From a virus: a stretch of DNA of 16,255 nucleotides. The stretch is taken from the UHGV virus genome UHGV-0338003; one strand, written 5' to 3'. This document shows positions 4,567 through 15,358 of this stretch, piece by piece. Below the pieces are notes generated by a model. The model did not search any database. It had not been told where the DNA came from and saw only the letters and a program-made list of their open reading frames with translations. The translations under genes were made by a program, and so were the position numbers. How positions within the stretch are numbered: position 1 is the stretch's first letter; the number at the start of each line of letters is the position of its first letter.

Positions 4567-5060
4567 TAAGCCCCCACGTAATTCCCTGACAGATACCACT
4601 CTTCACCCGATGCAGCGTGCTTGCTGCTTTTCCGTAAGCACCGCTCACGACGCGCCAGAAAATTGTTTCGTTCTGGCTGGGAGTGGCTTTCACGGAATGC
4701 CGCCATCCACACGGTTGCAGCACGACGGTATAAGCCCCTTGACTCCAGTTCTTCCGCCTGGCGGGTCAGGCACAAAATCACCCGGGGATCGTTAGTGCCG
4801 ACATAGAAATTGCGCGCAGGTCTGGTTTCACGAACTGGTTGTGGTTCCGGCTCCTGCGCTCTCTCAGTCAGGCGCGGGAAATGTCTGCGTGTATCCCCTT
4901 CACAACGGTGAGCCACACGCCCACTCTGACGTAACTTGCTTGCTGACTGCAGAACGCGCTGCCGTGAGTAACCAGCAAAAGCATCCGCAATGTCTCCGGA
5001 AGTACACCCCGGATGGGCTTCAATGAATTTCTGAACGTCATTTAACAGACTCATGATCAC
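4566..5060 (-). CDS. PerC-like transcriptional regulator with N-terminal winged-helix extension
   Basis: 164 aa. C-terminal AEELESRGLYRRAATVWMAAF resembles the PerC/Pch signature (LE.KGLWRRAA.W). ATGA overlap with the replication gene stop. Confidence 0.5.
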   Translation of the reverse strand: MIMSLLNDVQKFIEAHPGCTSGDIADAFAGYSRQRVLQSASKLRQSGRVAHRCEGDTRRHFPRLTERAQEPEPQPVRETRPARNFYVGTNDPRVILCLTRQAEELESRGLYRRAATVWMAAFRESHSQPERNNFLARRERCLRKSSKHAASGEEWYLSGNYVGA

Positions 5061-5998
5061 CCCCTGAATCCTGCCGGGATCTGGCTGTAGTCCACGTTGT
5101 CGTAACTGGATTTGAAGTACGGGTCTTCGCGTTTTTCAGTGTACGTGCTTACGGACGGCGATAAGCGCAGGGAAAGCTCATCCCATTTTTCCCGCAGCTT
5201 CGACGGGCTGAGCACGTTACGGCACCAGAACGGATCGCGGCTGACGCGGCTGTACATCTCGCAGATTTGTTTGTGAGTACGACCATCCTGCACACACATC
5301 AGGCGAATTTCGTTTGCCCAGGCTGTCCAGTTCGGTTCTTTGGGACGAACCACCTCGCCGTCACATTCGGCGGCCTGCTCGTACAGGGCGATGATTTTTT
5401 TCCAGAGCCACTGTGCGCAGGTCAAATCATCCTGCGTTCCCCACTGGCGCTTTTTAGGGCTGAATACAACCGCATCAGGATGGCGAGTTAAAAAATCCTG
5501 TTCATCCGTCTGCGTGTCCGGTTGCGAAGCGTCCGGACGAGAAGTTTTTTTATCTGACGGATCATGTTTTGATTTTACTGACGGATCCCCGCCAGATTCT
5601 GACGGGTGAAAACCCGCTTTTTTGCCAGATTTCGACGCATCAAATTTTGACGGGTCAGATTTTGATGCGTCAGATTTTGACGGGTCAGAATCTGACAGTT
5701 GAGAAAATGCCGCTGCCTGAAGCTTCGCAACGTTAAGCTGATAAACATTCGACGCATTGCGGTTACCCTGGCGACGCGCCTTACGCGTTAACCAGCCTTC
5801 TGCTTCCAGCCGTGCGATAGCCGTTCTGACGGTACTCATCCCCGCGCCAATCTGGCGGGCAATGGTTTCAATTGATGGCCAGCACACACCTTCGTCATTA
5901 CTGAAATCAGCCAGGCGGGCCATAATTGCCACGCTGGATAATTTCATGCCTGATGCAGCGCAACCATCCCATACATAGCCGGTTAATTTAGTGCTCAT
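5057..5998 (-). CDS. phage replication initiation protein (O-like)
   Basis: 313 aa. N-terminal HTH (SIETIARQIGAGMSTVRTAIARLEAEGWL), a central low-complexity SKSD/DPSK repeat linker encoded by DNA iterons, and a C-terminal domain as in lambdoid replisome organisers. Confidence 0.6.
   Translation of the reverse strand: MSTKLTGYVWDGCAASGMKLSSVAIMARLADFSNDEGVCWPSIETIARQIGAGMSTVRTAIARLEAEGWLTRKARRQGNRNASNVYQLNVAKLQAAAFSQLSDSDPSKSDASKSDPSKFDASKSGKKAGFHPSESGGDPSVKSKHDPSDKKTSRPDASQPDTQTDEQDFLTRHPDAVVFSPKKRQWGTQDDLTCAQWLWKKIIALYEQAAECDGEVVRPKEPNWTAWANEIRLMCVQDGRTHKQICEMYSRVSRDPFWCRNVLSPSKLREKWDELSLRLSPSVSTYTEKREDPYFKSSYDNVDYSQIPAGFRG
5550..5700. repeat. iteron array (candidate origin of replication) inside the replication initiator gene
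   Basis: About eight tandem copies of a roughly 15-bp unit such as CAGATTTTGACGGGT (also CAGATTCTGACGGGT, CAGATTTTGATGCGT, TACTGACGGATC), flanked by T-runs. Same layout as lambda ori inside O. Confidence 0.5.
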
Positions 5999-6007
5999 GA
6001 CCGACCT

Positions 6008-6346
6008 CTATTTCCCTGAATTTACGACGAAACTGTTCGAGCGGGCTGAAGCACTCATGCTCATAGCCTTCGCGGAGGTAGATAACCCGTTGTGTTTCCG
6101 GCTCCCAACGAATGACTCTGACGGGCACTCCGTAGTGATCTTTGAACCAGCGGTTAACTTGTCGCAAAGGACTGTCTCCTTCTGCCGGTTGAAATCACCC
6201 ACAGCCCACTCTGCAAAGCTGTGGGTTACAATTTCCCTGTCACCTGGTACATTTACTGCATAGCAATACTCCACCTTCGCTTTTCCACCCGGTACAGGAA
6301 GCGCAATCAGTTGCGAGCGACGGTAGTGTGTTGTTAAACTGTTCAT
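6008..6346 (-). CDS. hypothetical protein between the CII-like and replication genes, with a probable frame break
   Basis: ATG at 6346 overlaps the CII-like stop. The first 50 or so residues look protein-like, then the frame turns low-complexity, while a second minus frame over about 6003-6190 is protein-like ([42 protein letters not shown]) but has no ATG. Confidence 0.3.
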
Positions 6347-6894
6347 GCGTTAGTTTCTCCACAGTCACGACACGCCACGGCGCCCGGAGCTGCACACTCG
6401 CGGGCGTCATTACTTTCTGAAATGCAAAAAATTTTGTAGACCAGTGCTGCATGCTCCTGCAGCTTCGAAATTGAGAGGTACAGCTCGTCGTTAATTGCTG
6501 TCTTCTCATGCGGTTCCACTACACCGTCTTCAATTGCTGAACGAATCTGTTTTGAATAACTGCCGATCTGTTCAATGACTTCCAGCAGGCGCTGGTTAAT
6601 ATCGGCGTTGTCCACATCCTCGACGTCAGGAAGAGACACAAAGACGCCATTTGCAGACTGCGCCACAGCGTCAGCAATGAAGTGAGTTCCACCAGCACGT
6701 TGCAAAATCATTGCCCATCCCAGCGGGAAAATCTGATCGCCATCGGCACGAAGGCGGTTAAATAATGCGTTCTCTGTTACATCCAGCCAGTCAGCAGCTT
6801 CAGCGTACCCCCCCGGCAACGCTGCGATAGTTTTTCTGACAGCTTTCACGTACCACTCAGGCTGTTTTTCTACTTTCCAGTGATGCTTACCCAC
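6343..6894 (-). CDS. CII-like regulatory protein (phage CII/CP76-type, YdaT-like)
   Basis: 183 aa, immediately downstream of cro with overlapping start and stop. Central [22 protein letters not shown] resembles CII-family regulators. Assignment from position and memory only. Confidence 0.45.
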
Positions 6895-7147
6895 GGTTCA
6901 CCTCCTGTTCCTGTGGTTTAAACCCATTCTGATTTTGGCTAGATTGAAAACGTGCCGGATAAAGAATCTGCATTTCGCTGACTTCACCCTTAAAAAAATT
7001 GGCTAAACGTTCTGCAAGCTCGATAGATGGAATCTGCTCCAGCCTCTCAATACGACTCAACGTCGCTGGATTGACTTGAACACCCGCAGCAACATGCTGC
7101 AAAGTGAAACCATGCGCCTTACGCACATTTCGTAATGGTGATTGCAT
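6887..7147 (-). CDS. Cro-like HTH (XRE-family) transcriptional regulator
   Basis: 86 aa with HTH GFTLQHVAAGVQVNPATLSRIERLEQIPS. GGAGGA RBS upstream. Divergent from the cI gene across an operator region. Confidence 0.7.
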   Translation of the reverse strand: MQSPLRNVRKAHGFTLQHVAAGVQVNPATLSRIERLEQIPSIELAERLANFFKGEVSEMQILYPARFQSSQNQNGFKPQEQEVNRG

Positions 7148-7161
7148 ATGTCCTCCAAATA

Positions 7162-7224
7162 TTGCGCGTTATGCATGTTATTTCACGCAATTATTTTGCG
7201 CAAGTTGATTTGCTTATCACGCAA
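7162..7224. promoter_or_regulatory. OR-like operator region with three sites between the divergent cro-like and cI genes
   Basis: Three partially palindromic sites at 24-bp spacing: TTGCGCGTTATGCAT (7162-7176), CGCAATTATTTTGCG (7186-7200), TTGCTTATCACGCAA (7210-7224). Divergent promoters are implied by gene arrangement. Confidence 0.55.
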
Positions 7225-7244: not shown

Positions 7245-7937
7245 ATGAACATAGGAAACCGAGTCAGACAACTTCGCCAAGCGAAGAACATGAAAATCGC
7301 CGATCTCGCTGAAGCAATAGGAGTAGATGCGGCGAACATCTCGCGCTTAGAAACGGGTAAGCAAAAACAATTTACCGAACAAACACTGAGTAATATTGCC
7401 AAGAGCTTAGGTGTTGATATTGCTGATCTCTTTACCTCTGCCCACAAAAGTAATACTGTATATAAAAACAGTAATAATGAGGATGTTGCGCAGGTGAAGG
7501 ATGTGTTCCGTATTGAAATGCTGGATATCAGTGCCAGTGCGGGAAATGGCCTTATCCAGGGCGGTGATGTCATTGATGTGATTCATGCCATCGAATACAG
7601 AACTGATAATGCTGTATCAATGTTCGGCGGACGACCAGCCAATCACATCAAAGTTATCAACGTTCGTGGGGACAGTATGTGTCCAACCATTGAGCCAGGA
7701 GATCTCATCTTCGTTGATGTCAGCATCAATCAGTTTGATGGTGATGGTATATATGTCTTTGGTTTTGATGACAAAATATACGTTAAAAGACTTCAAATGA
7801 TTCCTGACAAACTGCTGGTGATTTCTGATAACCAGATTTACCGTGAATGGGGAATTACTAGCGAAAACGAACACCGATTCATGGTCTTTGGAAAGGTCTT
7901 AATCAGTCAGTCGCAAACCCTTAAGAGACATAATTAA
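7245..7937 (+). CDS. CI-type prophage repressor (HTH plus S24 LexA-like autopeptidase)
   Basis: 230 aa. N-terminal HTH (MKIADLAEAIGVDAANISRLETGKQ) and a C-terminal S24 domain with GDSM serine motif and downstream KR. No obvious SD before the ATG, so possibly leaderless. Confidence 0.85.
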   Translation: MNIGNRVRQLRQAKNMKIADLAEAIGVDAANISRLETGKQKQFTEQTLSNIAKSLGVDIADLFTSAHKSNTVYKNSNNEDVAQVKDVFRIEMLDISASAGNGLIQGGDVIDVIHAIEYRTDNAVSMFGGRPANHIKVINVRGDSMCPTIEPGDLIFVDVSINQFDGDGIYVFGFDDKIYVKRLQMIPDKLLVISDNQIYREWGITSENEHRFMVFGKVLISQSQTLKRHN

Positions 7938-7957
7938 CCTCAATATCCCATCCATCG

Positions 7958-7980
7958 GCCACCGAAAGGTGGCTTTTTAT
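7958..7980 (+). terminator. intrinsic terminator after the repressor gene
   Basis: Stem GCCACC, loop GAAA, stem GGTGGC, followed by TTTTTAT. Lies 20 bp downstream of the cI stop. Confidence 0.6.
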
Positions 7981-7991
7981 TACCTATAAAT

Positions 7992-8042
7992 TTGCATATT
8001 TCGCAAAAATCACTTGCATATCTCGCAATTTAATTTTATCTT
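7992..8042 (+). promoter_or_regulatory. PL/OL-like promoter with two operator copies
   Basis: Direct repeat TTGCATATTTCGCAA (7992-8006) and TTGCATATCTCGCAA (8014-8028), same TTGC-N7-GCAA pattern as the OR sites. -35 TTGCAT at 8014-8019, 17-nt spacer, -10 TATCTT at 8037-8042. Confidence 0.4.
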
Positions 8043-8199
8043 TTGTTCCAGACCAACTACAGGATTACAACAAAATCTGGTTGCAACACGGTGCATGTGT
8101 CGTAAGCAGTCAGTAAATGTCAAAAACGAACAGGCAGGACGCCCACGAAGTAGCCGCCTGGGGCATATGAAGTCCAGGATGATTCGTTAGCAACAAAAA

Positions 8200-8236
8200 A
8201 GCGCCCTACAGGACGCTTAGCTCTTTAACAATCTGG
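8200..8236 (+). promoter_or_regulatory. BoxA-like antitermination element preceded by a hairpin (nut-like or rrn-like)
   Basis: GCTCTTTAACAA (8220-8231) matches the rrn BoxA core and resembles lambda nut boxA (CGCTCTTA). Preceded by the AGCGCC...GGACGCT hairpin. Sits in the leader between the PL-like promoter and the first plus-strand ORF. Confidence 0.4.
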
Positions 8237-8276
8237 TCCCCATCAACAAGTAACTGATAACTTGAGGAGATGTGAA

Positions 8277-8483
8277 ATGCACAAAACAGAACCCAAAATC
8301 GTCGCGCCTGGCTACACAGATGAGGAAATTTATGAGTGGATGACAAAGAAGCTGGCAGCTATAAACCAGCTTCGTGAAGTGCTGTCTTATCGACAGGAAA
8401 CAATAGACTCCTTAAAAAAACTGGATCAGGAAATCACGGTTTTATCACAGGATGTTACTTTAGATATTGTGCAGACAAATTAG
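8277..8483 (+). CDS. hypothetical small protein (predicted helical)
   Basis: 68 aa from the ATG at 8277, with a GAGGAG RBS 7 nt upstream. The ORF-track start at 8262 is a TTG. The 3' end overlaps the convergent 144-aa gene by 29 bp. Confidence 0.4.
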   Translation: MHKTEPKIVAPGYTDEEIYEWMTKKLAAINQLREVLSYRQETIDSLKKLDQEITVLSQDVTLDIVQTN

Positions 8484-8889
8484 GATCCCATTCATTTTCG
8501 TCAAAATCATCAAAGTGATGAATTTGTGATCTCCAGTCTCGATAATCTAAAAATTTCTGGGCGGTTACGCTTATTTTATCAAGTGTGAGTTCATCCTGAA
8601 TTGAAAGAAGAAGTTCATCAAATTTCATCTCATTAATCTGTTTTGGCATCCAGTGATGCTTCATCAGAATAAGGTGAACCAGAGCCTTTTTCCCATTCAA
8701 CTGATTATAGGGAGTGCCGAATTTCTTCCGGTGCTCATGTAAGACAAGGTCCAGAAGAGTAAGTAATGTTGCCCTTGATTCAACTTTGCTTATTTCGACT
8801 GATGACACTACCCCACTGATTTCAATGCCCCGATACTTTCCAACATTTTCACAGTGGGATTTGTACAGCGTATAGATATTACCGGACAT
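8455..8889 (-). CDS. hypothetical protein, AT-rich immunity-region moron
   Basis: 144 aa. ATG at 8889 with an AAGGA RBS on the minus strand. No recognisable family by eye. Direct repeats lie upstream. Confidence 0.5.
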   Translation of the reverse strand: MSGNIYTLYKSHCENVGKYRGIEISGVVSSVEISKVESRATLLTLLDLVLHEHRKKFGTPYNQLNGKKALVHLILMKHHWMPKQINEMKFDELLLSIQDELTLDKISVTAQKFLDYRDWRSQIHHFDDFDENEWDPNLSAQYLK

Positions 8890-9357
8890 TTCTTTTCCTT
8901 TTGCGTTGTTGGGGATAACCAGATTAACCGAATCCTTGTTGTTGGGGAATAACCAGGTCCACCTCGCCTGATGTGGCTAAAAGCAGGCACATAACAGCTA
9001 AGTATTTTCAACCAGAGAGAATCCTTAGCGTTGTGGTGAATGCGGCTCAGCGCACGCGGGTTAAGGTTGAGGCTGACAGTCGACCTTCTGTGGATACCCA
9101 CCCGCCTGGTGTGCAACCTTCGCCAGGCACCGGGAGGCACCCGGCACCACAACTTTATGCTGTGTGTAGTCCTGGCGGTACCAGCTTGTACCCTTGCTTC
9201 CGGCTGGTACCGTCCTTTTTACAAAACAGAGAAGAGCATCACCGGACGACGGGCTCATAACCCAATCCATCCGGGCGGCAGTCACCGCAGGTGTTCTTCT
9301 CTGTTTTGTGGAGAAACTAACCGACCTTGCAGGGTCGATATGATGAGGAGCAGCAAA

Positions 9358-9720
9358 ATGGCTAGCGAACGCAGTACTGATGTGCAGGCATTTATCGGGG
9401 AGCTGGACGGCGGCGTATTTGAAACCAAAATCGGCGCAGTTCTCAGTGAAGTCGCTTCCGGTGTGATGAACACGAAAACCAAAGGTAAGGTCTCGCTCAA
9501 CCTGGAAATCGAACCGTTTGATGAGAACCGTGTGAAAATCAAACACAAACTCTCATATGTTCGCCCAACTAACCGCGGGAAAATTTCCGAAGAAGACACC
9601 ACCGAAACGCCGATGTATGTCAATCGCGGTGGTCGCCTGACTATTCTGCAGGAAGACCAGGGACAATTACTGACTCTTGCCGGTGAACCTGACGGAAAAC
9701 TCCGCGCAGCAGGTCGTTAA
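9358..9720 (+). CDS. YfdP-like prophage protein
   Basis: 120 aa from the ATG at 9358, with GAGGAG 7 nt upstream. The 5' extension to 9040 in the ORF track is GC-rich and not protein-like. Directly precedes YfdQ/YfdR-like genes, as in CPS-53. Confidence 0.55.
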   Translation: MASERSTDVQAFIGELDGGVFETKIGAVLSEVASGVMNTKTKGKVSLNLEIEPFDENRVKIKHKLSYVRPTNRGKISEEDTTETPMYVNRGGRLTILQEDQGQLLTLAGEPDGKLRAAGR

Positions 9721-9785
9721 TATCGTTCGTAATAAACTGATTATTTATCTCATCACTGAATATCTTTATATAGTGAGGACTTATT

Positions 9786-10610
9786 ATGTCTCAGAACTTA
9801 GACGCAACCGCAATTAATCAAATCCATGCCCTTATTTCTGCTCAGGGTGTTAATGAAATTATCAGTAAGATTGGTGCCGATGCTGTGGCATTGCCTGAGA
9901 ATTTCCGCATTCATGATCTGGAAAAATTTAATTTAAATCGCTTCCGTTTCCGTGGTGCACTTTCCACTGCCAGCATCGATGATTTTACCCGTTATTCTAA
10001 AGATCTTGCAGATGAAGGCACCCGCTGCTTTATCGATGCCGATAATATGCGTGCCGTCAGTGTGCTTAACCTGGGTACTATTGATGAGCCAGGTCACGCA
10101 GATAACACTGCCACTCTCAAACTGAAAAAGACAGCACCGTTCTCTGCTCTGTTGTCTGTTAACGGCGAGCGTAACTCCCAGAAGTCACTGGCAGAATGGA
10201 TCGAAGACTGGGCCGACTACCTTGTGGGCTTTGATGCTAATGGTGACACCATTCAGGCAACAAAAGCGGCTGCGGCGGTCCGTAAAATCACGATTGAAGC
10301 AAACCAGACTGCTGATTTTGAAGATAATGACTTCAGCGGCAAACGCTCCCTGATGGAGTCTGTCGAAGCGAAGACCAAAGACATTATGCCAGTGGCATTT
10401 GAGTTTAAATGCGTTCCGTTTGAAGGTCTGAAAGAACGTCCGTTTAAATTACGCCTCAGCATTATCACTGGCGATCGTCCTGTACTGGTTCTGCGCATTA
10501 TTCAGCTGGAAGCGGTGCAGGAAGATATGGCTAACGAATTTCGTGATCTGCTTGTTGAGAAATTCAAGGACAGCAAAGTAGAAACCTTTATTGGGACTTT
10601 CACCGCCTGA
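9786..10610 (+). CDS. yfdQ: YfdQ-like protein (DUF2303 family)
   Basis: 274 aa with a GAGGA RBS. Recognised from memory as the conserved prophage protein encoded upstream of yfdR in E. coli CPS-53. Confidence 0.65.
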
Positions 10611-10738
10611 TTTCATTACTGCAAATGCCCCTGCGGGGGCATTTATGGAAACGTAATTGACTCAATAATCGCCTGAAGGCGAGGGTTTTCTTTAACCAAA
10701 ATTCAGCGCGGTGCAGCGCATATAACGTGGAGAACAAA

Positions 10739-11263
10739 ATGTCATTTATTAAAACTTTTTCCGGGAAACATTTTTATTATGACAGGATAAATAAAGACAA
10801 CATCGATATTAACGATATCGCGGTTTCCCTTTCAAATATCTGTCGCTTTGCCGGCCATCTTTCACACTTCTACAGCGTCGCCCAACATGCGGTGCTTTGC
10901 AGCCAGCTGGTACCGCAGGAATTTGCTTTTGAAGCGTTAATGCATGATGCAACAGAAGCGTATTGCCAGGACATCCCGGCTCCACTGAAACGCCTTCTTC
11001 CTGACTATAAACGGATGGAAGAAAAAATAGACGCCGTAATCCGTGAGAAATACGGGTTACCCCCGGTTATGAGTACGCCCGTGAAATATGCCGATCTCAT
11101 CATGCTGGCAACCGAACGCCGCGATCTCGGGCTTGATGATGGCTCTTTCTGGCCCGTACTGGAAGGTATCCCGGCAACAGAGATGTTCAAAGTTATTCCA
11201 CTGTCGCCAGGCCATACCTATGGGATGTTTATGGAACGCTTTAAAGAGTTAACTGAGTCGTAA
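10739..11263 (+). CDS. yfdR: HD-domain 5'-deoxynucleotidase (YfdR-like)
   Basis: HD-domain metal-binding residues present (H...H, then MHDATEAY). ATG at 10739 follows a GGAGAA RBS. The ORF track's GTG at 10727 would give 178 aa. Confidence 0.7.
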   Translation: MSFIKTFSGKHFYYDRINKDNIDINDIAVSLSNICRFAGHLSHFYSVAQHAVLCSQLVPQEFAFEALMHDATEAYCQDIPAPLKRLLPDYKRMEEKIDAVIREKYGLPPVMSTPVKYADLIMLATERRDLGLDDGSFWPVLEGIPATEMFKVIPLSPGHTYGMFMERFKELTES

Positions 11264-11371
11264 AAATCAGCACGTACGAATTCAAACTCTGCCATAAAAG
11301 AACATATAAGTAATTTATTAACATATAGATATAGGTTATATTACAAATTGAAAAATTATTGGAGAGCAACA

Positions 11372-12238
11372 ATGAATCAAAATCCATTCTCATTCTATGA
11401 CTTTCTTGGATATTTAATACCAGGTGGTTTTTTTATCCTATTAATGTATTTCTGTGGTTTGACATTCGATCTAGATATTGTTATTGACTTAAGTGAATTG
11501 CTCAGAGGTCAAAGTCAAATCTTTGGCATTTTGAACTACGCTTCAATAGTTATTATATCTTATATAGCTGGACATTTTATTTCTATCACGTCAGCATTTT
11601 TTATCGAAAAATACATGAATAAAGAATTAGGATATCCTTCCAAATATCTATTTAAAAAATTGATAGATACCTCAGAAAGCATTTGTAGCCCATCATGCGA
11701 TGAGAGAAGCGCTGATAAAAAAACAAAAATAAAGAATCGCATAATCAAATGCGTATTATGTCCAATAATACTATGGGATTTTATAACACAAAAACTATGT
11801 TATTCTCAATCTCTACCATTTCATTTAGCTAATACAACATGGTTAATGATCAAAGAAGGTTATGAGAAAAAGTTCATAACAAATCGCCAATTATTACAAG
11901 ATAAAAACGGACTTGATGATGATCTCTTCAGATTGGCATATCATTATGTTTATGAGTTTTCAAAACAACATCAAACAAAAATTCAAAACTATGTTGCATT
12001 ATATGGTTTTTGCAGAAACATATGTTTAATCTTTATAATTTCATTTTGGGTATCAGTTCCAACCTTTATTTATCGATTATGTACTCATAGTGATTATCTT
12101 TATAGTTTACTTTCAATAATGCTTAGCTTTTTCTTCGTCTATGTTTTCTATGTTGGTTTTGTTAAATTTTATAGAAGATATACTTTAGAAGTATTAATGG
12201 CATTTGCTGTACTTCAAAGTAACGACACTATTCGTTAA
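11372..12238 (+). CDS. hypothetical integral membrane protein, AT-rich moron
   Basis: 288 aa from the ATG at 11372, with GGAGAG 5 nt upstream (track start 11348 is TTG). Hydrophobic helices at both ends (GYLIPGGFFILLMYFCGL, IVIISYIAGHFISITSAFFI, ICLIFIISFWVSVPTFIY, LSIMLSFFFVYVFYVGFV) around a soluble middle. Much lower GC than its neighbours. Confidence 0.55.
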   Translation: MNQNPFSFYDFLGYLIPGGFFILLMYFCGLTFDLDIVIDLSELLRGQSQIFGILNYASIVIISYIAGHFISITSAFFIEKYMNKELGYPSKYLFKKLIDTSESICSPSCDERSADKKTKIKNRIIKCVLCPIILWDFITQKLCYSQSLPFHLANTTWLMIKEGYEKKFITNRQLLQDKNGLDDDLFRLAYHYVYEFSKQHQTKIQNYVALYGFCRNICLIFIISFWVSVPTFIYRLCTHSDYLYSLLSIMLSFFFVYVFYVGFVKFYRRYTLEVLMAFAVLQSNDTIR

Positions 12239-12279
12239 TAATGTTGCTCCCGTGTGCAGACGGGATAATGGAGAAACGT

Positions 12280-12486
12280 ATGCTGAACCTCGATTGTGTT
12301 CCTATCTCAACTTATTGCAAAGAAACTGGCGAAACTCCTGAAGCAATAAACAAACGTGTACAGCGCGGTGTTTGGCGTGAAGGTGTTCAGGTTTTAAAGG
12401 TTGAAGGCGTTAAGGAGAGGTGGATTGATCTTAGTGAGGTTGCAAAATGGGCCAGACAAAACTGCTCAAACTACCGCGCGGCGTAA
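12280..12486 (+). CDS. xis: excisionase-like small DNA-binding protein (Xis)
   Basis: 68 aa from the ATG at 12280, with GGAGA 5 nt upstream. Immediately upstream of and overlapping int. Basic protein with Trp residues typical of small Xis proteins. Called mainly from position. Confidence 0.45.
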   Translation: MLNLDCVPISTYCKETGETPEAINKRVQRGVWREGVQVLKVEGVKERWIDLSEVAKWARQNCSNYRAA

Positions 12487-13619
12487 CAATCAGGAAACAC
12501 CGCCAGGGAGAAACGATCAATATAACTTTCACCTACAAAGGAGTTAGATGTCGTGAGCCGCTTTCCAATCTGGAAGTAACACCAAAGAACATTAAATACG
12601 CCGAGCGTACACTCGGCGAAATCCATAATAAGATCGAAAGGGGAACATTCATTTATGCAGAATATTTTCCCCGTTCTGCTCGTTTGAAAATTTTTGGTAA
12701 TGCTGCTGCAGGCAAAACGGTAAAGATGTACCTGGACGAATATCTTGAAATCTGCGAAACAAGAAAACTTTCACCCTCTACGATTGGTGGCTATAAAAAA
12801 TGCCGTAGTGCGTTAGCCTCACTTCACATTTGCCCTGCAAGTGAATTAACACCAGCAACCCTGAAAGCGTGGATTCAAAATCAGAAAACGACCTTAAAAA
12901 CAATTCGCAACCAGTTATCTTTCCTGCGGTCAGCACTTGATGAAGCCGTGACCGATGGGGTACTTCAAATTAACCCCGTATCGTTAGTAACAGCTTCGCG
13001 CTACCAAAGTGATAAGTCAGAAGCAGAAAGCAGCTACGTAGTTGATCCGCTATCACCAGCAGAAGTTGATGCATTACTAGCAGCAGCCGGAAACAAACAA
13101 TGGGAAAATCTGTTCCGGTTCGCTATACATACAGGCCTGCGTAGTTCTGAATTATGTGCCCTTCGATGGCGTGATATCGACTTTGTTGGAAAAACTGCCC
13201 ATGTCCAGAGCGCAAGTGTTGTCGGTGTTATCAAAGGGACAAAGACAAAAGCAGGTACTCGGAAAGTTGAACTGACAGAAGAGGCAATGTTGGCGCTGAT
13301 AAATCAGAAGCCATTTACATTCATGAAGGATACTACTGTCTTTGAAGATCCAAAGACCAATAAGCCTTGGGCAAGTGCTGATGCAATCAGGAAAAAAGCA
13401 TGGGTGCCAACATTGCGAAAAGCAGGTATTCGTTACAGAAATCCATATCAAACTAGGCATACATTCGCCACCCGCCATATCAGCCGGGGAGCAAACCTGT
13501 TTTGGCTTGCAGCTCAAATGGGGCATAAAGGGCCGGAAATGTTATTTCGTCATTATGGTTCATATTTAAAGGAATATGACGGTAATACGACCAGCAATAT
13601 CACAAAAAAAGCCACTTAA
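12447..13619 (+). CDS. int: tyrosine recombinase, lambda-family phage integrase
   Basis: 390 aa. C-terminal catalytic signature: R in AIHTGLRSSEL, HTFATRHISRG, and RHYGSY with the nucleophile Tyr. Adjacent to the att-like tmRNA fragment. Confidence 0.9.
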   Translation: MGQTKLLKLPRGVTIRKHRQGETINITFTYKGVRCREPLSNLEVTPKNIKYAERTLGEIHNKIERGTFIYAEYFPRSARLKIFGNAAAGKTVKMYLDEYLEICETRKLSPSTIGGYKKCRSALASLHICPASELTPATLKAWIQNQKTTLKTIRNQLSFLRSALDEAVTDGVLQINPVSLVTASRYQSDKSEAESSYVVDPLSPAEVDALLAAAGNKQWENLFRFAIHTGLRSSELCALRWRDIDFVGKTAHVQSASVVGVIKGTKTKAGTRKVELTEEAMLALINQKPFTFMKDTTVFEDPKTNKPWASADAIRKKAWVPTLRKAGIRYRNPYQTRHTFATRHISRGANLFWLAAQMGHKGPEMLFRHYGSYLKEYDGNTTSNITKKAT

Positions 13620-14821: not shown

Positions 14822-15248
14822 TAAAAACCTTATCTTACAAATAGTTGGTAATGATGTTGAATTATTTTTTGTTCTTTATGGCTAATAAGATTACATGAAG
14901 GGACAACTTCTGACCACCTTAGAAAACACTCACTTTAGTAACAAGAGTCAATAATATTGTTGACAAATCACAAAAAAACAAACTTATCCAAAACAATCTG
15001 GTTTATCACAAAGCCTCTGTGCATAAATCTGTGCATAACATCATTTTTACACACATTTTTTTATAAAAATATTTTTTAGCAAAAAATGCTATCTATCTCC
15101 GAAACTGCAACCACAAACCATTAATTCCAAATGAAACTATTTTAAAATAAATAGTAAGACAGTAACAGGACAGAAAAAGTTCCGCAAAAGAGCCGCTTGT
15201 AAAATCAACAATATTTGGCTATTTAAATTCAATGAATTACATAACTAT

Positions 15249-15279
15249 GGACACGGGTTCAACTCCCGCCAGCCCACCA
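15249..15279 (+). other. partial tmRNA (ssrA) 3' end, candidate prophage attachment core
   Basis: GGACACGGGTTCAACTCCCGCCAGCCCACCA matches the tmRNA T-arm, acceptor 3' strand and CCA. The rest of the ~360-nt tmRNA body is absent. The sequence upstream is AT-rich phage DNA. Confidence 0.6.
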
Positions 15280-15327
15280 AAATTCTCCATCGGTGATTAC
15301 CAGAGTCATCCGATGAAGTCCTAAGAG

Positions 15328-15358
15328 CCCGCACGGCGCAAGCCCTGCGGGCTTTTTT
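15328..15358 (+). terminator. intrinsic terminator downstream of the tmRNA 3' fragment
   Basis: Stem GCCCGCA, loop, stem TGCGGGC, followed by TTTTTT. Confidence 0.5.

Follow-up and report, generated by a model that had tools for sequence, protein, structure and literature searches.

The window analyzed here, a stretch of 16,255 nucleotides (nt) from UHGV virus genome UHGV-0338003, belongs to an E. coli lambdoid prophage of SfII/SfIV/SfV/ST64B/e14 type, of which it covers the early region. The leader of its PL operon carries an exact BoxA, GCTCTTTAACAA, at 8220–8231 on the plus strand and, upstream of it, a conserved structured RNA of 64 nt at 8125–8188. An earlier reading of the letters alone (the sequence-only reading) had pointed out the BoxA downstream of a PL-like promoter and had labeled it rrn-type. 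That finding is real, but the BoxA is better seen as an orphan of the nutL type that belongs to an optional terminator-BoxA cassette, and the structured leader RNA may be the more important object of the two.

Together with a co-conserved AATCTGG tail, the BoxA occupies 8220–8236. The window has no other exact copy of GCTCTTTAACAA, and 200 dinucleotide-preserving shuffles yielded none (0 expected by chance). The element fits GYTCTTTAANA, the published gamma-proteobacterial BoxA consensus (PMC5725501), which has only this one match in the window, and no second BoxA-like site was found elsewhere in the window on either strand. A run of 13 bases, GCTCTTTAACAAT, is identical in the E. coli rrnG leader (13/13), and the BoxA is predicted to be single-stranded in the plus-strand PL transcript. 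NusB binds the rrn BoxA with an affinity of 130 nM, versus 2200 nM for the lambda nutL BoxA (PMC2800207). The BoxA of the window appears to be of the high-affinity rrn type, as an N-independent site would need.

The assignment to a PL leader is supported by an operator repeat common to the PL region and the cro/cI intergenic region. The 15-nt repeat TTGCATAT(T/C)TCGCAA (TTGC-N7-GCAA) lies at the OL operators 7992–8006 and 8014–8028, with a third copy at 7210–7224 between cro and cI. Within the region 7992–8042 (plus strand), the putative PL promoter would have its -35 hexamer at 8014–8019 (TTGCAT), its -10 hexamer at 8037–8042 (TATCTT), and a start near 8049. The -10 region, TTTTATCTT, is also carried by related leaders.

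A hairpin just 5' of the BoxA had been noted as well, and it is indeed there, at 8199–8218, in a form that is stronger on the minus strand. On that strand AAGCGTCCTGTAGGGCGCTT is followed by TTTTTTGTT (U6), with a predicted energy of -11.5 kcal/mol; on the plus strand the energy is -7.5 kcal/mol, and a C.A mismatch stands where the minus strand has a G.U pair. The hairpin looks like an intrinsic terminator, with a weaker form in the PL transcript, and its likely role is to end minus-strand transcription from the convergent moron gene at 8455–8889 (144 amino acids, ECs1072 family by its RefSeq name, PHROG 5286). This hairpin type is a generic phage terminator. We found it in 85 distinct phage contexts, with a BoxA-like sequence after it in only 21 and none in the other 64.

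Conservation was assessed in the 21 contexts in which this hairpin-anchored scan found both parts. In 20 of them the BoxA consensus is unbroken, and the sole position that varies within the BoxA is the consensus N (position 10, C or A). Loop, linker, and both flanks vary in 4 to 12 of the 21 sequences, counted per position. The BoxA appears to be one half of a portable cassette of about 45 nt (8193–8236) that consists of hairpin plus BoxA and can be written AAAAAAGCGCCC-loop-GGACGCTT(A/C)GCTCTTTAA(C/A)AATCTGG. At least six unrelated downstream sequences start straight after AATCTGG (after 8236), so the block behaves like a unit rather than a piece of one particular moron. A convergent minus-strand open reading frame (ORF) of at least 70 amino acids ends within 300 nt in 10 of 10 distinct cassette contexts, versus 25–36 of the 93 that lack the cassette. 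Copies of the cassette are also found where the upstream leader motif is missing, for example in Klebsiella phage Kp4882-1, and there it lies 13 nt from the stop codon of a convergent ORF. Its close association with convergent morons suggests an insulator with two faces.

The cassette is nonetheless optional. Among 127 related leaders, gathered by a conserved upstream 17-mer, only 21–23 (about 20%) have the cassette BoxA, and in these its distance is always the same. Hairpin and BoxA are both absent from the leaders of SfV and SfII, and SfII has the same repressor, operators, and immunity type as the window; homology of these two phages with the window ends at 8188 and restarts at the STnc100 region described below. 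There is no BoxA cassette at the leader motif of the K-12 prophage e14 either. Its absence from the close relatives SfV and SfII means that the cassette is dispensable, and its overall distribution means that it cannot be the device by which this phage lineage in general achieves early antitermination.

No N system was found to accompany the BoxA, which bears out the earlier statement that the window encodes no arginine-rich N-like protein. Pfam and PHROGs were searched with the ten ORFs of the PL side and immunity region without a match to an N family, and a Pfam search with the larger PR-operon ORFs (Q included), cI, and int was equally negative. The profile search for a diverged N that had been proposed earlier thus came out negative. 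An arginine-rich-motif scan of all six frames of the window returned only out-of-frame or antisense ORFs and no free-standing one; a detector of the same kind recovered N in four of four controls (lambda, P22, and two metagenomic phages that encode N). N is also missing from the RefSeq annotation of a relative with 99.9% identity over the 1.36-kb leader segment. The first ORF on the PL strand, at 8277–8483 (68 amino acids, PHROG 1744, function unknown), has GAGGAG 7 nt 5' of its ATG and is not N-like. We also considered a 31-residue Lys/Arg-rich ORF at 8095–8190 (plus strand), MCRKQSVNVKNEQAGRPRSSRLGHMKSRMIR, as a cryptic N. It matches no family and overlaps the leader RNA; SfV keeps its stop position but has no in-frame start there downstream of the promoter, and we judged the ORF to be non-coding.

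The nut-site partners are missing too. No hairpin that could serve as a boxB stem-loop is predicted in 8232–8260, where the sequence differs between relatives, and 8232–8276 reads TCTGGTCCCCATCAACAAGTAACTGATAACTTGAGGAGATGTGAA, with no GU-rich UGUGUGGG-like element that could be a boxC. The sequence-only reading was also right that there is no intergenic room for a nutR, as the cro-like and cII-like genes overlap by 8 nt. With N, boxB, and nutR absent, any function of the BoxA must be N-independent.

The rrn-type label holds only in part. The BoxA does fit the rrn consensus and matches 13 nt of rrnG, but the same block, GCTCTTTAACAATC, turned up in a scan for it in two PL-type, nutL-like leaders, L293 and L310, each with an ORF after it whose N-terminus is arginine-rich. 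The N-like protein of L293 begins MEVLMNARERCRAKRHAIREK and ends in KSIPLI as lambda N does; that of L310 begins MNAKQRCKLRRLERRSEERN. The flank 5' of the BoxA is also similar (11 of 14 positions identical between CCCTACAGGACGCT in the window and CCCAACAGGAAGTT in L310). When the leaders of lambda, P22, L293, L310, and the window are aligned, they share a common plan of CATCA..GCAGGACGC, a small hairpin, and a BoxA. Because N-phage leaders have the same block and a similar 5' flank, the BoxA of the window is, on its sequence, best described as an orphan nutL-type site of the P22/phi21/rrn-like class that lost boxB and N or never had them, and not as one borrowed from an rrn operon.

Compared with the nutL sites of lambda, P22, and phi21, the window has the same sense-oriented BoxA in a PL leader with a small hairpin just 5' of it, and its BoxA block, identical to that of L293 and L310, is very close to P22 nutL, CGCTCTTTAAC. 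Unlike those sites, it has no boxB after the BoxA (no counterpart of GCGCTGACAAAGCGC in P22 or GCGCTGAAAAGCGC in L262, a locus discussed below), no N, and no nutR, and there is a mosaic junction 3' of the BoxA. Two side observations concern the shared sequences of these leaders. The PL transcripts of lambda (L390, 590–700, minus strand) and P22 (L389, 1300–1400, minus strand) open with (C)AUCAGCAGGACGC. The word CAGGACGC is common to the lambda and P22 PL leaders and the core of the leader RNA in the window (8130–8145), and this 8-mer recurs in the pre-BoxA hairpin at 8209–8216. The shared word and the small pre-BoxA hairpin may represent an element ancestral to PL leaders or a linker for recombination.

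Our preferred reading, which we put somewhat short of an even chance, is that the BoxA may be a binding site for NusB and S10 (NusE) that loads host Nus factors onto PL elongation complexes without N and shields them from Rho. The BoxA would descend from a lambdoid nutL and now work without boxB or N, and the cassette would let reverse-oriented morons sit inside the early-left operon by doing two jobs. The hairpin would end the minus-strand moron transcript before it reaches PL and cI. The BoxA, read from PL, would assemble NusB, S10, NusA, NusG, and SuhB ahead of about 870 nt of untranslated RNA, and the resulting complex would protect the polymerase from Rho, as in rrn operons and in CRISPR arrays. 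The PL transcript has no plus-strand ORF from 8484 to 9357, a stretch that would be antisense to the moron and would span the STnc100-like region. It includes a C-rich, G-poor segment at 8777–8854 (23 C, 9 G), although base composition is weak evidence for predicting a rut site.

There is precedent for a BoxA that acts without N, both at suhB (PMC5725501) and at untranslated CRISPR arrays that are protected from Rho (PMC7665894). Like the window, the suhB 5' untranslated region and the Salmonella CRISPR leaders match GYTCTTTAANA perfectly in an untranslated leader close to the promoter, and in the CRISPR arrays the BoxA also precedes a long untranslated RNA (PMC7665894). The BoxA of the window differs in lying in a prophage early operon, tied to a putative reverse terminator in a mobile cassette. 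The rrn leader (boxB-boxA-boxC, with NusB, S10, NusA, NusG, SuhB, and S4) offers a similar comparison. It shares with the window the 13 rrnG BoxA bases, N-independence, and the order of hairpin then BoxA 1–2 nt apart (2 nt in rrnG). Unlike an rrn leader, the window has no boxC, its hairpin is unrelated to the rrn boxB and folds better on the opposite strand, and the operon is a phage operon that does not encode ribosomal RNA.

Several points weigh against this Nus-loading reading. BoxA/Nus complexes without N counter Rho and not strong intrinsic terminators. A strong plus-strand intrinsic terminator lies at 9174–9222, between PL and yfdP, so PL transcription must pass it to reach that gene. 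It has a 13-bp stem at about 9174–9213 followed by U5, and its 3' hairpin is predicted at -30.9 kcal/mol (z -4.95). A terminator-like site at 10669–10690 is a further obstacle. As N-less Nus complexes are not expected to carry polymerase through the terminator at 9174–9222, the BoxA alone does not deliver expression of yfdP through int, and passage needs something else. In addition, SfV and SfII share the operon and have reverse-oriented ORFs, yet they do without the cassette. The L478 copy has a change that breaks the BoxA consensus. The conservation of the BoxA could also owe something to hitch-hiking beside a selected terminator hairpin or to recent shared ancestry of the copies. The earlier proposal of Nus-type or RNA-based antitermination therefore stands in so far as N, boxB, and nutR are absent and both Nus factors and an RNA are plausible agents, but the cassette is optional and the intrinsic terminator is left unexplained by it. 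One possibility is that the leader RNA at 8125–8188 helps polymerase past that terminator.

The main rival to Nus loading is that the BoxA is a functionless vestige of nutL, left over from an N-dependent ancestor or serving as a short patch of homology where lambdoid modules recombine, and kept because it lies 1–2 nt from a selected terminator hairpin. The BoxA block and its similar 5' flank in the nutL-like leaders of N-encoding phages, the mosaic junctions directly 3' of the block, the dispensability of the cassette in SfV, SfII, and e14, and the broken consensus in L478 would all fit such an origin. We nevertheless consider it unlikely, though a serious contender. Every consensus position is kept in 20 of 21 contexts while neighboring positions vary freely and only the consensus-free position 10 changes. 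The retained form is the apparent high-affinity rrn type and not the weaker lambda type, and the 64 contexts in which the hairpin has no BoxA indicate that the terminator needs no such tail.

Two further explanations seem to us improbable. The BoxA might be a negative cis-regulator, as at suhB or in the lambda N leader, with Nus factors repressing translation of the ORF at 8277 and exposing the transcript to Rho. It ends 45 nt 5' of the ATG at 8277, inside the 50-nt window for suhB-type sites (PMC5725501), and the cassettes of L307 and L320 also have a small plus-strand ORF 45–50 nt from the BoxA start (in L320 a homologue of the 8277–8483 ORF comes after the same cassette). Most cassette contexts, however, have no plus-strand ORF there but only the convergent gene, and the 8277 ORF encodes neither a Nus factor nor a regulator. 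We give equally little credence to the cassette as a bidirectional terminator or insulator, in which the T-rich BoxA would serve as the tail of the plus-strand hairpin and stop PL transcription that lacks an antiterminator. The run of A residues 5' of the hairpin, the TTAGCTCTTT 3' of it, and the T-runs that follow many copies of the hairpin elsewhere are in keeping with this; the plus-strand stem is weak and mismatched (-7.5 kcal/mol), its tail has 4 U in the first 8 nt, and a need for U-richness does not explain an exact 12-nt BoxA. For the same reasons of a weak stem and few U, we rejected the simpler notion that the BoxA is merely the U-tract of a plus-strand terminator.

The element at 8125–8188 (plus strand), which all the relatives conserve and which the sequence-only reading had not picked up, is a true structured RNA. 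Its stem P1 pairs 8125–8130 with 8183–8188, and P3 pairs 8157–8161 with 8174–8178. Across 53 distinct sequences, 94.7% of the alignment cells pair overall, versus 20–48% when the partners are slid by 1–3 columns. Changes on both sides were seen in 10 of 14 pairs (P1 5/6, P3 5/5), and P1 covaries among CGAA/UUCG, CAUC/GAUG, and CACC/GGUG. Almost no variation is seen in the unpaired core AGGCAGGACGCCCACGAAGUAGC, the P3 loop GGCRNAYGAA, or the junction AUGA, and the RNA holds an invariant GCCCACGAAGUAGC. In a sample anchored solely on the 3' part, 98 of 136 cores are canonical, 36 have 1–3 substitutions or a small insertion, and the remaining 2 are partial second copies without a core. These partial copies (3' half only) are in the IMG/VR loci L099 and L278, about 670 nt from the full copy in L278, and may be recombination scars. 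Our covariance model of the motif (R1) scores 91 bits in the window, where there is a single copy; Rfam 15 has no match at 8125–8188.

Position relative to the promoter is also shared. A promoter-like site was found in 74 of 102 distinct contexts, and in 56 of those 74 the -10 hexamer ends 9–24 nt before P1, which puts the start of the leader RNA about 20 nt or less from the transcript start. In the window and SfII, promoter and leader RNA are about 75 nt further apart. The motif persists across loci whose repressors, operators, and downstream genes are all different; no conserved partner protein adjoins it, and the genes downstream vary between phages. Hosts of record are Escherichia, Shigella, Salmonella, Klebsiella, Citrobacter, Yersinia, Pectobacterium, and Pantoea, a range taken from phage records alone. 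A loose-pattern scan of genome contigs gave only chance matches in GC-rich genomes. A further conserved leader element (..TTAACGCGCAGCAGGT..AAACGTTCCGC..) lies 10–60 nt after the motif or after PL in L007, L012, L086, L288, and other loci; it follows the motif in SPN3UB-like and Klebsiella phages and precedes the cassette, without the motif, in Kp4882-1.

The 121-nt leader is matched in 1531 of 5426 complete E. coli genomes (~28%), and the motif plus cassette in 1086 of the 5426 (~20%). No annotated feature lies under the leader among the matches listed. K-12 MG1655 has a copy in prophage e14 (L488, 6110–6179, minus strand; NC_000913.3 1,202,109–1,202,178) that scores 72.6 bits, is unannotated, and lies in the intergenic region between ymfK (repressor) and ymfJ, directly after a TTGACA-17-CATAAT promoter. 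In the literature on the motif sequence, SfV/SfIV early antitermination, mEp237/mEp460, and ymfJ/ymfK, we found neither the leader RNA nor the cassette described, and the leader RNA is probably undescribed so far.

If the BoxA does not carry polymerase past the terminator, the leader RNA might. It could be the early antitermination device itself, acting in cis like put, with the BoxA as an accessory or as part of a composite nut-like site; we regard this as quite possible but doubtful. It is a true structured RNA, is promoter-proximal in most relatives like putL (PMC9378689), and is retained where repressors, operators, and genes downstream change. In about 87% of 109 distinct loci, the detector that found N in all four controls sees no arginine-rich ORF nearby, and 82 of 106 loci have no BoxA within 1.5 kb. 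Downstream there is a strong intrinsic terminator. A 2025 study of related ST64B/LLS-type phages also remarks that N is absent and speculates about a put-like mechanism (PMC12315714).

Against these points, there is no detectable kinship with put in either direction: model R1 finds no match in the put sites of HK022 and HK639, and a put model (R2) finds none in the window or seven related phages. Locus L262 (IMG/VR) has, about 60–1100 nt after PL, the motif, an ORF, a canonical boxA-boxB nut site (CGCTCTTTAACAG-ACA-GCGCTGAAAAGCGC), and a 98-residue N-like protein. This layout means that motif and N can coexist, so the RNA is not a simple replacement for N. The word CAGGACGC of its 5' core is also found in the PL leaders of N-dependent lambda and P22. 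Roles in transcript stability, as a small RNA (sRNA), or as the binding site of another factor fit equally well.

The HK022 and HK639 put sites antiterminate in cis without protein factors and are blocked by mutations in the zinc-binding domain of the beta' subunit (PMC9378689). They resemble the leader RNA in length (about 65–70 nt), in having several helices, in being promoter-proximal, and in belonging to phages mostly without N, and HK639 has a single put site, as the window has a single leader RNA. They differ in that P1 of the leader RNA closes two arms, whereas put has two side-by-side stems, in the lack of any sequence or structure match, and in the co-occurrence of the leader RNA with N in at least one phage (L262). 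A bolder reading, which we think unlikely, is that the leader RNA represents a new class of cis-acting, protein-independent processive antiterminator, an analogue of put unrelated in sequence. It would serve a large set of N-less lambdoid phages of Enterobacterales (in that reading SfV, SfII, SfIV, ST64B, phiNP, ZF40, YeP1, SPN3UB, and K-12 e14), and the cassette would be an optional Nus-loading add-on, guarding against Rho wherever reverse-oriented morons leave the transcript untranslated.

Other identities for these elements were considered and set aside. STnc100 as a put-like RNA found no support, as Rfam STnc100 has no match in the HK022 put regions and the literature treats STnc100/PasD as prophage base-pairing sRNAs. 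The motif recalls a CsrA site (GGA), but the GGA is lost in the covarying variants AGAUGA and GAAUGA. A likeness to the ops element extends to only 6–7 of 12 positions. A census of terminators 3' of the motif proved too lax, as it gave 3.4 sites per 2 kb on the strand opposite, and was not used.

Many lambdoid phages and prophages lack N, among them serotype-converting Shigella phages and Salmonella ST64B, and how they pass terminators is an acknowledged gap (PMC12315714). The leader offers two candidates that can be mutated, a putative high-affinity orphan BoxA and an unannotated structured RNA. If the Nus-loading reading is true, the orphan BoxA would extend N-independent Nus regulation (rrn, suhB, CRISPR arrays) to prophage operons. 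The e14 copy in K-12 makes such experiments easy to set up.

The rest of the window has the layout of a lambdoid early region. On the minus strand, the PR operon includes the cro-like gene (6887–7147), the cII-like gene (6343–6894), the replication protein gene (5057–5998), genes for DUF968, KilA-N, RusA, a LexA-like DNA-binding protein, Dam, and PerC, and the Q antiterminator gene (612–1370, PF03589). Inside the replication gene, a run of ATCTGAC..GTCAAAA-type repeats (5623–5697, minus strand), caught as a spurious microRNA match, looks like origin iterons. On the PL side, the cI-like repressor gene (7245–7937, plus strand) is followed by an intrinsic terminator at 7957–7982 (plus strand; hairpin GGCCACCGAAAGGTGGCT then TTTTTATT), and the homologous SfII site is annotated as a terminator.

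Beyond the moron, the STnc100-like prophage sRNA region at 9000–9223 (plus strand) is a full-length match to Rfam STnc100 (RF02076) at 42.4 bits against a gathering score of 47 (E 2e-6), and the strong terminator discussed above forms its end. Two direct copies of TTGTTGGGGA(A)TAACCAG, at 8906–8922 and 8939–8956, sit in the gap between the ECs1072 moron's start and this region and may be a divergent promoter or a regulator-binding region; the sequence around them is kept together with STnc100 in many loci. The distal PL-operon genes (9358–13619, plus strand) are yfdP, yfdQ (DUF2303), yfdR (HD phosphatase), an ORF of unknown function, xis, and int (12447–13619), and they sit past the terminators at about 9222 and 10669–10690. 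Integration at ssrA has been reported for related phages (PMC12315714). A fragment of the 3' end of the transfer-messenger RNA lies at 15231–15279 (plus strand), followed by a terminator hairpin at 15302–15358, which suggests that the fragment is the attachment site of a prophage integrated at ssrA.

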